From a virus (taxonomy: Duplodnaviria; Heunggongvirae; Uroviricota; Caudoviricetes), in the IMG/VR virus record IMGVR_UViG_2579778702_000011: 14,554 bases of DNA, one strand, 5' to 3'. This document shows, in pieces, positions 7,041-13,185 of this stretch (positions are counted from its first letter, which is position 1; each line of letters starts with the position of its first letter). A program made the translations under genes and the position numbers. The notes under the pieces are model-generated. The model had not been told where the DNA came from. It saw only the letters and a program-made list of their open reading frames with translations, and searched no databases.

Positions 7041-7697
7041 ATGAAGTCTTTAGGTGAACGTCTCATCAACGCACGGCAAAAAGCTGGGTTAACACAAGAT
7101 GCGTTGGCTAAAAAAGCTGGGATCACCAGAGTTGCAATCAGTAAAGCCGAGCAAGGCCTTACAAAAAGTTTCAACGGTGACACCCTTTTTAAAGTTGCAG
7201 CTGCACTGCGGTGTTCACCGCAGTGGCTTCAGAACGGAGATGAAAAAGATAAGCATTGGGAAAATAATGTTAAGAGCTGCCCACAGAGAGACACAGCACA
7301 CTCTTACCCTGTAATTAACTGGGTTCAGGCAGGATTATTCGCAACTTCTGGTGATGACTACAACATGTATGATCAGGATAATTGGAGGCATTCTGTAAAA
7401 TACGCTGGTGAGAGGGGGTTCTGGCTGGAAGTGCACGGAGACTCAATGACTTCGCCCGTAGGAATAACATTTCCTGAAGGAATGTCGATCCTTGTCAACC
7501 CAGATAAAGAAGTTTTTTCAGGGTGTTACGTCATCGCCAGAAAAAAATCCACCAATGAAGCAACATTCAAAAAATATATTTCTGACATGGGAAAGGCGTT
7601 TCTAAAGCCCCTTAATCCACAATATCCAATCATAGAAATGGACAATGATTGCGAAATAGTAGGTGTTGTGGTTGATGCCAGGTGGGATATTTTCTGA
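7041..7697 (+). CDS. CI/LexA-type prophage repressor (N-terminal HTH-XRE, C-terminal S24 peptidase autocleavage domain)
   Basis: HTH 'LTQDALAKKAGITRVAISKAEQG'. Ala-Gly cleavage site in 'WVQAGLF'. Catalytic Ser in 'GDSM' and Lys in 'ATFKKY'. SD GAGAGGAG before ATG 7041; the track's upstream ATG at 6966 lacks an SD and would overlap the operators. Confidence 0.9.
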   Translation: MKSLGERLINARQKAGLTQDALAKKAGITRVAISKAEQGLTKSFNGDTLFKVAAALRCSPQWLQNGDEKDKHWENNVKSCPQRDTAHSYPVINWVQAGLFATSGDDYNMYDQDNWRHSVKYAGERGFWLEVHGDSMTSPVGITFPEGMSILVNPDKEVFSGCYVIARKKSTNEATFKKYISDMGKAFLKPLNPQYPIIEMDNDCEIVGVVVDARWDIF

Positions 7698-7807: not shown

Positions 7808-8224
7808 ATGATCAATAAAGCTACAACTCTTGACTGTCTCGAAGAACTGAAAAACCTCGGCAGCCTCATTACACTAATAGCAAAAGCAACACCTGATGCT
7901 ACGCTCTCTAGCGATATAGAGTCATGCGCAGGGCTGGCATGGGATATGACAAATAGCATATCCAGAAAGCTATCGTCAGCAATGCTTTTACAGAATAAAA
8001 ATTCTGCAATCAACAACCGTCTTCGCACCCAACGCGAAGCCTGCGGCTTAACAACCGCCGAACTCGCCAGGCTGCTCGATCTCGATGAAGAAATTATCAT
8101 CCAGTGGGAGAGCGGAGAGTATGAACCAACTATCAGTATGCTTATCCCACTGGCAAATATTCTTGGCTGCGATCCGATGTGGCTGTTAACTGGTAAACCA
8201 ACAGGTGGGGATACTTGCGCATGA
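7808..8224 (+). CDS. protein with C-terminal HTH-XRE DNA-binding domain (138 aa); first gene of the pL-like operon
   Basis: HTH 'LTTAELARLLDLDEEIIIQWESGEYEPTISMLIPLANILG'. GAGG 9 nt upstream of ATG 7808. Confidence 0.7.
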   Translation: MINKATTLDCLEELKNLGSLITLIAKATPDATLSSDIESCAGLAWDMTNSISRKLSSAMLLQNKNSAINNRLRTQREACGLTTAELARLLDLDEEIIIQWESGEYEPTISMLIPLANILGCDPMWLLTGKPTGGDTCA

Positions 8225-8620: not shown

Positions 8621-8731
8621 TTATCCTCCATTGAGAGCTGAATTGAAAATGGGGACCAACACGCGGCTACGTGTGGTCGTGCGCCGGACACGGATAAGCA
8701 TCCGGTAACTGATTATCAATCATTGCGGAAA

Positions 8732-8760
8732 CAGTCTCAATATGAAAACACTTCTGAGAC
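8732..8760. promoter_or_regulatory. inverted repeat AGTCTCA-N15-TGAGACT just upstream of a TATATA -10-like element, in a divergent intergenic region
   Basis: Read directly. Lies between the minus-strand gene ending at 8620 and the plus-strand gene starting at 8800; TATATA is at 8765..8770. Confidence 0.3.
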
Positions 8761-8799
8761 TCGCTATATAGCAGGACATATAAGTCAGCTGAGGAAGCC

Positions 8800-9165
8800 A
8801 TGAAAAAGTTCGAAAACATAACTGTTCTCCATGTTGATGACTTTGATTATACAAACCCGGAACTTCTCCCGGAGGTTGTAAAGGCAATAGATGTTGCCGA
8901 TATAGTGATTAGAGAAAAGAGAATTGTCAAAAACAGGCTCGCATGCACTTCAGGAGCAATGACAGAAACAACCTCACAGCAAGATAATTACGAAGGCATT
9001 TGTCTGGAGCCTGATTCATTTGCGGTAAATGTTTATCATTTATTGCATGCAACACAGGTATTACATATGTCCAGTAATCACGAAACGAAAACACTCGGCA
9101 GCGAAATTCTGAGTTTTGCATGTGAGTATACAAAAGCTGCTGCCGAAAAAGAATTAGCGCAATAA
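8800..9165 (+). CDS. hypothetical protein (121 aa)
   Basis: ORF track; GAGGAAG SD before ATG 8800; no motif recognised. Confidence 0.65.
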   Translation: MKKFENITVLHVDDFDYTNPELLPEVVKAIDVADIVIREKRIVKNRLACTSGAMTETTSQQDNYEGICLEPDSFAVNVYHLLHATQVLHMSSNHETKTLGSEILSFACEYTKAAAEKELAQ

Positions 9166-9243
9166 CAACAAATATGCCCTGAACGTTTATTGCGGTTTTA
9201 TCGCCGGGGATTGTTACAACCTTAATCCACAGGAGGCTTTATT

Positions 9244-9357
9244 GTGACTTTTATAAAGAATATGGCATCACACAAGACCGCCTGCCTTATTGCACAATAC
9301 GGTGAAAATTACATGCATATTGCCTGCTTATTTCTGCGTAAAGCATACGGGAGATAA
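9244..9357 (+). CDS. possible small ORF (37 aa, GTG start)
   Basis: AGGAGG 8 nt upstream of GTG 9244. Ends with TAA 2 nt before the next ATG. Below the ORF-track size threshold; translated by hand. Confidence 0.3.
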   Translation: MTFIKNMASHKTACLIAQYGENYMHIACLFLRKAYGR

Positions 9358-9359
9358 TA

Positions 9360-9590
9360 ATGCATCAGAAAACAGCAGAACACGAACAAACCAGAGTATT
9401 GCTGACCATCAAAAACGGGAAAGTAATATTCATTCGCCATGTTCATGACGATGAACTTGTAGGAACTCTTTCAACATTCCTGTTTATTGCAGAAAGGGCA
9501 GGATATGACGTTATTGCACCAGCAGATGAAGATGAAGATGAAGATGAAGATGAAGATGAAGATGAAGATGAAGATGAAGATGAGGAATAA
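9360..9590 (+). CDS. small protein with C-terminal poly-(Asp-Glu) tail (76 aa; about 55-aa globular part plus (DE)10E)
   Basis: ORF track; the tail is encoded by a perfect (GATGAA)9 tract. Confidence 0.7.
   Translation: MHQKTAEHEQTRVLLTIKNGKVIFIRHVHDDELVGTLSTFLFIAERAGYDVIAPADEDEDEDEDEDEDEDEDEDEE
9525..9578 (+). repeat. hexanucleotide microsatellite (GATGAA)x9, in frame
   Basis: Read directly; followed by GATGAGGAATAA. Confidence 0.95.
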
Positions 9591-9595
9591 ATATC

Positions 9596-10177
9596 ATGCA
9601 ATACGATGAATTCCAGGCTGAAGCAACAGCCAATGGTATACGAACTGGCAGTATGACGATTGATTATCACGACGCCATACGTCGTCTGGATGCCGGAGAA
9701 TTCGATACTCCTAATGTGCGAGGTTTACGTATCCTTCAGTGTCTGGCGCAAGCCGACGAAGCAGGATTACTGGGTAAACTTCCGGTTGAGATGAAGGTTG
9801 CTCAGTGGCGATGGTTGTATGTGACGACATTCATCAACGAAGAAGAAGACAAGAACGGCACAATTGATATCTTGAATGAACACGGAACAACTGAACACGC
9901 CGTGGTATATAACGGGATGTATGGGTTTATGACGATATATCCCGGCCCCATTCGATTTGCCTTACAACAGTATATTGAATGGAATTTAATTCAAAAATAC
10001 GGCGAAGCTGAAGGAATGGGAAGAGCGCTGTTTCTTTATCAGAAAATGCTCACTACTTCCCCTGATAAAGGTTTCATTCTTTCAGATATGGGTCGAGAAG
10101 GGCTTGAAATCCTTCTGGATGAAATTATTAACGAAATGAATACTCATGGCATGCAATCCGAAACAGATATTAAGTAA
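9596..10177 (+). CDS. hypothetical protein (193 aa)
   Basis: ORF track; GAGGA 9 nt upstream of ATG 9596; no motif recognised. Confidence 0.65.
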   Translation: MQYDEFQAEATANGIRTGSMTIDYHDAIRRLDAGEFDTPNVRGLRILQCLAQADEAGLLGKLPVEMKVAQWRWLYVTTFINEEEDKNGTIDILNEHGTTEHAVVYNGMYGFMTIYPGPIRFALQQYIEWNLIQKYGEAEGMGRALFLYQKMLTTSPDKGFILSDMGREGLEILLDEIINEMNTHGMQSETDIK

Positions 10178-10187
10178 AAGGGACCAC

Positions 10188-10409
10188 ATGACCGTTATCG
10201 AGCATATCCAGGAAAATCCAGATTGCAGTAGAGAAGATATATCCCTCGCACTTGGAAGAAGCGCAACTTCTATCAGTAATGAATTATCACGGTTATTGTG
10301 GAATGGGTTAATAGTACGAACTGGAGAAAAAAACAAAATGATTCTGTACTGCGTAAACAATCTGCCGTTTGGATACAGCAATCCCCTCAGTGTTATGTTC
10401 AACCAGTGA
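10188..10409 (+). CDS. small protein, possibly winged-helix DNA-binding (73 aa)
   Basis: ATG 10188 with AAAGGGA upstream (the track start 10146 overlaps the previous gene and lacks an SD). Segment 'DISLALGRSATSISNELSRLLWNGLIVRTGEK' resembles a wHTH. Weak. Confidence 0.5.
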   Translation: MTVIEHIQENPDCSREDISLALGRSATSISNELSRLLWNGLIVRTGEKNKMILYCVNNLPFGYSNPLSVMFNQ

Positions 10410-12948: not shown

Positions 12949-13185
12949 ATGGGCAATGTGATTCAACTGGCTCCCAATGAATGGGTTTGTGAAAGCGTTC
13001 TTATCGCAATTACCGGGCTCAAACCAGGCACAATTCTTCGGGCCCGGAAAGAATGCTGGATGGTTGGAAGAGAGTATATTCACGTATCACCAGACGGTAA
13101 TCCAAAGCCTTCCAGTGAATGTATGTATAACAGAAAAGCAATAGATGCCTGGGTCGCCTCAATGAAAAACAAACAACCCAGGTGA
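12949..13185 (+). CDS. xis: excisionase-like small DNA-binding protein (DUF1233/Xis-like)
   Basis: 78 aa immediately upstream of the integrase. Motifs 'NEWV...ITGLKPGTILRARKE...GREYIHV...AIDAWV' resemble prophage excisionase-like proteins. GAGGT SD. Confidence 0.65.
   Translation: MGNVIQLAPNEWVCESVLIAITGLKPGTILRARKECWMVGREYIHVSPDGNPKPSSECMYNRKAIDAWVASMKNKQPR

Follow-up and report, generated by a model that had tools for sequence, protein, structure and literature searches.

An acidic (DE)n tail of variable length, encoded by an in-frame hexanucleotide repeat, on a phiP27 L07-family protein of Escherichia coli prophages

Known DNA mimics present rigid arrays of carboxylates on a folded surface, and the SSB-type tail is acidic, carries a conserved hydrophobic tip (such as DDDIPF) and is attached to an OB-fold. 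As a rule, antitoxins are acidic proteins, whereas toxins are basic. Host-takeover genes of lambdoid phages are often found in the early-left accessory operon, and the coding VNTRs of E. coli include 6-bp in-frame repeats used for MLVA typing. [quoted passage not shown] An upstream nascent chain of at least 30 aa largely counteracts IRD (bioRxiv 10.1101/2021.02.02.429294).

We investigated a small phage protein with a long acidic C-terminus, encoded in a stretch of 14,554 nucleotides (the window). By its sequence, the window is assigned to an E. coli temperate phage of the phiP27 / PhiR49_2 / yecE-type Stx-phage group: nt 8700-10300 show 99.7% identity to Escherichia phage PhiR49_2 and about 93% identity to many Stx1a/Stx2a-converting phages. 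The gene of interest, hereafter the tail ORF, is found in the early-left accessory region, on the strand of the repressor and between the repressor and xis/int, so that the pL-proximal location proposed in the first-pass annotation is borne out by the ORF map of the window and by the related loci. In every public annotation this gene bears the label 'hypothetical protein'. The features of the region are the following:

6966-7697, plus strand: cI-like repressor
7808-8224, plus strand: HTH protein
8800-9165, plus strand: 121-aa phiP27 L08-like gene, the upstream member of the cassette (phrog_5451, E=1.7e-83; 96% identity to phiP27 L08)
9244-9357, plus strand: conserved 37-aa ORF (orf37) with a GTG start, directly 5' of the tail ORF, annotated in PhiR49_2 and Stx phages
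9349-9353, plus strand: Shine-Dalgarno GGGAG, 6 nt 5' of the ATG of the tail ORF and within the end of the 37-aa ORF
9360-9590, plus strand: tail ORF of the phiP27 L07 / phrog_340 family, a 55-aa core followed by (DE)10E (translation and PHROG match)
9396-9497, plus strand: confidently predicted core, beta-hairpin and helix (AlphaFold2)
9525-9584, plus strand: hexanucleotide microsatellite (GATGAA)9 + GATGAG, encoding (DE)10 (Tandem Repeats Finder and codon register, the latter also defining the four subfeatures of the tract and stop below)
9525-9578, plus strand: (GATGAA)9
9579-9584, plus strand: GATGAG, last repeat unit
9585-9587, plus strand: GAA codon
9588-9590, plus strand: TAA stop of the tail ORF
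9582-9586, plus strand: GAGGA in the final tail codons, the probable Shine-Dalgarno of the downstream gene (sequence; inferred function)
9596-10177, plus strand: 193-aa phiP27 L06-like gene (phrog_1515), with 5 nt between its ATG and the stop of the tail ORF
between the 193-aa gene and xis, plus strand: a MarR-like gene, then two Ea22-like genes
12949-13185, plus strand: xis
13241 to the window end, plus strand: int

The tail ORF encodes the 76-aa protein MHQKTAEHEQTRVLLTIKNGKVIFIRHVHDDELVGTLSTFLFIAERAGYDVIAPA(DE)10E, in which translation gives a run of 21 consecutive acidic residues ending in ...DEDEE. Tandem Repeats Finder reported an array at 9524-9583 with a period of 6, 10.0 copies, 100% matches and a score of 120, which no other repeat in the window approaches. 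An 18-nt probe made of three units gave 8 overlapping matches at the repeat and none elsewhere in the window, and it gave 0 matches in 200 dinucleotide-preserving shuffles. Translation, codon register and Tandem Repeats Finder agree with the earlier description of a 55-aa part with a (DE)10 tail encoded by (GATGAA)9. An antisense poly-Ser ORF (9443-9670, minus strand) and a +2-frame MKMK ORF were set aside as mechanical by-products of the repeat. No RNA family was found in Rfam at the repeat site, and a promoter and terminator scan returned sites no more numerous than in shuffled sequence.

The 76-aa protein matches PHROG phrog_340, a family of unknown function, with E=7e-24 (residues 2-67 to profile positions 17-82 of 85), and the family profile, searched against the window, scored 106.9 bits at the tail ORF. 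The phiP27 gene L07 belongs to the same family, its core being 53% identical to that of the window protein. A HMMER search of 1.84 billion cluster representatives gave 19 matches at E<=0.001, which, leaving aside two close relatives and one spurious match, are small proteins of 54-120 aa with 38-52% identity; the spurious one (P0027, 1950 aa, 10 partial matches) was judged to be a repetitive surface-type protein and rejected as a homologue. A profile search collected 168 homologues from Enterobacteriaceae, including Escherichia, Klebsiella, Salmonella, Raoultella, Lelliottia and Shigella, of which a few were pre-assigned to PF27490. The window protein carries the family motif LTI[EK]NG..V...R....E...S..TF...A..AGY.V..P. 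Family members have this core motif in common, measure 54-101 aa and are encoded in the early-left operon of temperate Enterobacteriaceae phages, between repressor and integrase. Residues G20 and E32 are invariant in both alignments (A1 and A2) and P54 is invariant in A2, in which T16, I17, N19, F40, A47, G48 and Y49 are conserved at 90% or more, and the core motif is kept at 30-50% identity across many genera. Thus, the profile match, the motif together with the size, and the early-left location all place the protein in phrog_340. Weak PHROG matches to the C-terminal part of the anti-repressor-annotated phrog_4792 and phrog_2379 (E=2e-6 and 1.5e-3) gave a tentative anti-repressor lead; the ORF6N and Rha proteins of related loci showed no such domain with the family HMM.

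An AlphaFold2 model built on a 60-sequence alignment reached a mean pLDDT of 80.8. The predicted core comprises two strands (residues 13-18 and 21-27) forming a beta-hairpin and a helix (residues 37-46), with block-mean pLDDT values of 91-95 over residues 11-50 and of 57-60 over residues 61-76; the tail, modelled at low confidence, is probably disordered. The predicted core has no fold match among solved or viral structures, the small protein had no match above threshold when scanned against Pfam, NCBIfam and PADLOC, and no RHH, HTH or AbrB DNA-binding domain is recognisable in the core. The core is the conserved part of the protein, presumably also the functional one, and, considering its small size and the absence of a catalytic or DNA-binding signature, its role is most likely that of a protein-binding module.

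The C-terminal part of the family behaves differently from the core. Among 77 distinct family tails, the mean length is 12 aa and the mean net charge is −2.4, with a net negative charge in 86%; they are rich in E, S, N, T and D, and some are just NTEKQ or AKEQTL. The phiP27 L07 protein ends in ...PPAKEQTL and presents no acidic repeat, in the same gene order as in the window, with L08 and the 37-aa ORF upstream and L06 (65% identity to the 193-aa gene) downstream. The homologue of PhiR49_2 ends in ADEDEDEE and those of Stx phages in ADEDEE, and close homologues differ from the window protein just in repeat number. The ancestral end of this DE lineage is ADEDEE (GATGAA GATGAG GAA), and the acidic (DE)n tail is lineage-specific and not conserved across the family. 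According to the first-pass annotation, homologues that lack the tail with unchanged function would refute its reading; tail-less homologues in the same gene context, such as phiP27 L07 with its AKEQTL end, come close to this, on the side of the missing tail and of the shared context. As 86% of the family tails are net negative, some acidity may nevertheless be selected, and a stronger acidic tail could have a functional effect.

Repeat number was compared across related prophages, as had been proposed, in 77 loci, of which 73 are IMG/VR contigs, three are phage records and one is the window. The (DE)n tail has n=2 in 35 loci, n=3 in 25, n=4 in 5 and n=5 in 5, the long alleles being n=6 (1 locus), n=7 (4), n=8 (1) and n=10 (1, the window). 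All 77 arrays are pure (GATGAA)n-1 GATGAG and the ORF is intact in 77/77, the repeat changes being in frame. In complete E. coli genomes, 249 of 5,426 carried the region, with matched lengths of 453, 459, 465, 471, 477, 483 and 495 bp for a 501-bp query, corresponding to 2, 3, 4, 5, 6, 7 and 9 copies, and the 10-copy allele was absent from these 249. The alleles known overall from loci and complete genomes span 2-10 units, with 10 copies as the longest and 2-3 as the commonest. A collection of about 15 billion proteins contained no exact copy of the 76-aa protein; in it, cluster members of 60 aa and 62 aa were found in at least 1000 contigs each, those of 64 aa in 265, of 66 aa in 84 and of 72 aa in 1.

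The copy number also varies on otherwise identical DNA. Defining a 1-kb flank haplotype as identical 300 nt upstream and 700 nt downstream, 6 of the 15 multi-member haplotypes are polymorphic in copy number; that of the window contains 7/7/7/10 copies, and the others 2/2/8, 4/5/6, 2/3/3, 3/5 and 3/4. Since different copy numbers occur on identical flanks, copy number shifts faster than point substitution and the tract is a hypermutable in-frame repeat. Therefore, the idea of a slippage-prone tract that changes tail length without a frameshift holds well, alleles of 2-10 units being found, often on identical 1-kb flanks. All 26 loci whose core has S36 or F33/N36 carry 2 copies, whereas T36 cores range from 2 to 10, which fits a microsatellite length threshold for slippage. 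The perfect units and the copy differences between near-identical haplotypes are those of a hypermutable coding tandem repeat (VNTR). With a unit of 6 nt, the reading frame is preserved in every allele and the locus does not behave as an on/off phase-variable contingency locus; the repeat lies 5' of the Shine-Dalgarno of the next gene, the spacing of which it leaves unchanged. The rarity that rises with tail length fits mutation-drift, and weak selection against long tails fits equally.

Segregating sites were counted in the DE lineage. The 55 codons of the core contain 10 nonsynonymous and 1 synonymous sites, compared to 20 and 26 for the 193-aa gene and 11 and 9 for the 37-aa ORF, the difference between the core and the 193-aa gene being significant (Fisher p=0.006). 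The 10:1 against 20:26 indicates that the small protein is under relaxed or diversifying selection relative to its neighbour, and an arms race is one possible source of the nonsynonymous excess in the core, which would fit a counter-defence role. Databases also contain a few variants with a frameshift (P0020, P0021, P0025 and P0026).

The 193-aa L06-like gene is the constant partner of the tail ORF in the DE lineage. In phiP27 the two genes overlap, L07 ending at 3168 and the L06 match starting at 3165 (locus L087), and this overlap, together with the 5-nt gap from stop to ATG in the window, suggests translational coupling. As the GAGGA is placed 3' of the variable units, its spacing to the ATG at 9596 is constant whatever the copy number. 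Upstream, homologues of the 37-aa ORF precede the family gene in prophages of E. coli, Klebsiella, Salmonella and Citrobacter, among others (tblastn).

In other prophages, of E. coli (L077-L080), Klebsiella (L081-L083) and Lelliottia (L086), the family gene overlaps a downstream gene of 72-74 aa that matches Pfam PF24732 'ParE-like toxin domain' with 62-68 bits for a cut-off of 24.4. A scan of one genome per species found the ParE-like pairing in 7/9 loci, the paired ones being from Citrobacter, Pseudocitrobacter, Trabulsiella, Enterobacter and Pseudescherichia. In the reciprocal test, a family member was directly upstream in 53 of 57 viral ParE-like loci, 48 of these overlapping by 28 nt, and in the other 4 of the 57, which lack the family gene, the toxin-like gene is directly preceded by one for a phrog_1737 protein. 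Conversely, the family occurs without a ParE-like gene in phiP27, Fels-1, a Salmonella prophage, C. amalonaticus, Rouxiella and the whole DE lineage, no ParE-like sequence being found in the window or in any DE-lineage locus. The cassette, made of orf37, a 69-aa gene, phrog_1737 or L08, the L07 family, the ParE-like gene, phrog_1886 and an L06-like gene, is shuffled, and its members come and go.

The first-pass annotation had likened the tail to the DNA-mimic surfaces of anti-restriction proteins and to partner-recruiting tails such as that of SSB, i.e. the polyanion would be a mimic or decoy blocking restriction enzymes or DNA-binding host proteins, or an SSB-like recruiting tail. The 21 consecutive acidic residues and the position of the gene in the early-left accessory operon speak for such a role, and the net-negative bias of the tails and the nonsynonymous excess are compatible with a host-interaction protein. 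However, the protein resembles none of Ocr, ArdA and KlcA, has no match above threshold in Pfam, NCBIfam or PADLOC and no fold match, so that it shares neither the sequence or fold of the Ocr, ArdA and KlcA-ArdB groups nor their DNA-like carboxylate surface; the commonest alleles encode just (DE)2-3, and in many homologues from the same context the tail counts 5-6 residues and bears no net negative charge. The structure prediction, which had been suggested as a check, also goes against the proposal, the low pLDDT of the tail indicating that it is not a rigid charge array. As for the SSB-like version, the ...DEDEE end is devoid of the hydrophobic or aromatic tip of SSB or T7 gp2.5 tails, the core is a beta-hairpin with a helix, and no OB-fold or SSB match was obtained in Pfam. 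The tests made here thus lend no support to DNA mimicry, to anti-restriction or to an SSB-like tail, and we consider a dedicated function of this kind unlikely, with a small chance left for the long allele. A cis-acting effect on translation is still less probable, and we would be surprised to find it: long alleles would abort translation in the tail by IRD, so that less of the small protein would be made and fewer ribosomes would reach its stop, and the repeat number would set the expression of the gene pair. With 21 acidic residues the tract is comparable to the 20D/20E reporters and is, by length, a candidate IRD sequence, and the 5-nt gap here and the gene overlap in phiP27 would provide the link to the next gene. 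Nevertheless, 55 residues precede the tract, so IRD is expected to be mostly suppressed, the 193-aa gene possesses its own GAGGA Shine-Dalgarno, and the rarity of long alleles argues against a routinely used switch.

The linkage to the ParE-like gene raises another explanation, in which the family would be a partner, an antitoxin-like neutraliser or an orphan antitoxin, the tail and the core binding the very basic ParE-like toxin-domain protein; in the orphan version, the toxin gene is missing here and the protein would act in trans against the ParE-like proteins of other prophages (anti-addiction or anti-exclusion). The upstream and mostly overlapping pairing in 53/57 loci is the classical antitoxin-toxin layout, and the species-level scan, with its 7/9 pairs, points in the same direction. 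The hypothesis was downgraded after the reciprocal test, since the four ParE-like loci without the family gene imply that the family member is not an obligatory antidote. Moreover, the two genes do not co-occur obligatorily: the ParE-like gene is absent from the window and from the DE lineage, and loci of phiP27, Fels-1, Salmonella, C. amalonaticus and Rouxiella carry the family gene without the toxin-like one. An RHH, HTH or AbrB domain is not recognisable in the core, no PDB antitoxin matched the small protein in sequence, and the ParE-like partner is a putative toxin by its Pfam domain. An antitoxin role is consequently doubtful, with a small chance of being right. The view that the ORF is non-functional and decaying, its C-terminus gathering repeat junk, could draw on the 10:1 ratio in the lineage and on the few frameshifted database variants, and it is hardly credible in view of a core motif conserved across many genera, a good Shine-Dalgarno, a confident fold prediction and an ORF intact in 77/77 loci with all repeat changes in frame. 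Finally, a diversifying core and a tail reset by slippage could together form an arms-race factor, a tunable decoy for a basic nucleic-acid-binding protein of the host or of a rival prophage, a ParE-like toxin for example; we give this a slim chance. A further possibility within it is that tail length also sets the yield of the protein itself and downstream translation through ribosome destabilisation, and, if true, this combination would amount to a contingency locus, in frame and variable in length, within a counter-defence gene of a phage.

The explanation that we favour, and hold to be probable, is that of a real accessory protein of phiP27/PhiR49_2-like prophages, with a functional core and a slippage-expanded, length-variant tail that is not a dedicated DNA mimic. 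Two near-identical hexamers at the gene end, GATGAA GATGAG, would have seeded the microsatellite in the DE lineage. Slipped-strand mispairing in replication would then gain or lose whole 6-nt units, which would keep the frame, the stop codon and the ribosome-binding site of the downstream gene, and the (DE)10 of the window would be the rare long extreme of the 2-10 copy polymorphism. The compact core would carry the function, with a disordered, generic and mildly acidic C-terminal tail appended to it. Differences in tail length are most likely neutral and would at most slightly tune a generic acidic tail.

The extreme 10-copy allele is new, and the uncharacterised family, phrog_340 / L07, was already catalogued. 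If this slippage-expanded tail is the right reading, the locus is a clean natural case of a two-unit seed turning into a hypervariable in-frame microsatellite, and a warning that striking polyanionic phage tails need not be DNA mimics. It could also serve as a typing marker for this E. coli prophage group, including ST131-associated alleles; a literature search found no paper listing GATGAA as a published MLVA locus. The tight, not obligatory ParE-like linkage and the uncharacterised early-left cassette represent the more useful lead, present in many Enterobacteriaceae prophages; together with the excess of amino-acid polymorphism, the ParE-like cassette is what most deserves follow-up.

Compared to the described systems, the protein shares with T7 Ocr, ArdA and the SSB and T7 gp2.5 tails a high negative charge, a phage-encoded origin and a plausible early expression. 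It differs from Ocr and ArdA in that its charge is carried by a disordered, homopolymer-like tail rather than by a folded surface shaped like DNA, and from all four in that the tail length is not conserved. With type II antitoxins (ParD, PaaA2) it has in common a small gene located upstream of, and overlapping, a ParE-like gene in most relatives, and an acidic, disordered C-terminus; unlike them, the prophage of the window has no toxin gene, and each of the two genes is also found alone. The resemblance to IRD tracts (MgtL EPDP and the 20D/20E reporters) lies in about 20 consecutive D/E residues translated in E. coli, the difference being that the tract of the window comes after a 55-aa chain. 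As in the coding VNTRs of E. coli, a perfect repeat within an ORF changes by whole units between near-identical genomes, and here, unlike in those, the repeat builds a homogeneous polyanionic C-terminal tail.

Of the sites that segregate among 65 related loci, 10 nonsynonymous and 1 synonymous fall in the 55-codon core of the acidic-tailed gene (9360-9524), against 20 nonsynonymous and 26 synonymous in the 193-aa L06-like gene directly downstream (9596-10177), a difference that is significant by Fisher test (p = 0.006). The variable residues of the core are grouped at positions 13, 23-26, 33-36 and 46. On either side of these two genes lies a further short reading frame:

9244-9357, + strand, 37-aa ORF with a GTG start, directly upstream of the tail gene
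10146-10409, + strand, 87-aa MarR/winged-helix-like ORF, overlapping the 3' end of the 193-aa gene by 32 nt

Homologues of the 37-aa ORF, with 46-70% identity, are found upstream of L07-family genes (phrog_340, the family of the tail gene) in E. coli, Klebsiella, Salmonella, Citrobacter, Enterobacter and other prophages, and the ORF has the appearance of a conserved micro-protein. It is frequently missing from gene calls. In 55 of 87 related loci the MarR-like ORF is conserved with constant spacing.

In many relatives, L07-family members are paired with a gene of 72-74 aa encoding a ParE-like toxin domain (PF24732, phrog_1525), which is overlapped by the upstream L07-family gene in 53/57 viral loci and in 7/9 species genomes. 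The ParE-like gene lies in the following related prophage loci:

L077, 5001-5795
L081, 5001-5840
L086, 4001-4412
L089-L094 and L096
L098-L154

The usual flanks of the ParE-like gene are phrog_1737 upstream and phrog_1886 downstream, and the cassette belongs to the early-left operon of prophages from Enterobacteriaceae. It is possibly a multi-component unit resembling toxin-antitoxin systems. In a Pseudescherichia MAG (L094, 3302-4536), the gene order is L06-like, partial L07-family copy, full copy and ParE-like gene, an order which shows that the cassette has been duplicated and rearranged there.

Elsewhere in the window, on the minus strand, two Rfam matches exceed their gathering scores:

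5175-5262, - strand, C4 antisense RNA, 82.4 bits
5287-5363, - strand, isrK Hfq-binding sRNA, 61.6 bits

Both are placed within or at the start of a 284-aa ORF (4566-5420, - strand), and together they resemble a C4/isrK antirepressor control module of the P1/P7 type. Two minus-strand replication-gene ORFs contain repeats:

3132-3173, perfect 21-nt tandem duplication, within ORF 2321-3229 (-)
3761-3807, 3.1 copies of the 15-nt unit CAGATTCTGAAGGTT, within ORF 3231-4157 (-)

The 15-nt repeat looks like a set of origin iterons in an O-like gene, a position that is comparable to that of the lambda iterons, which lie inside the O gene.
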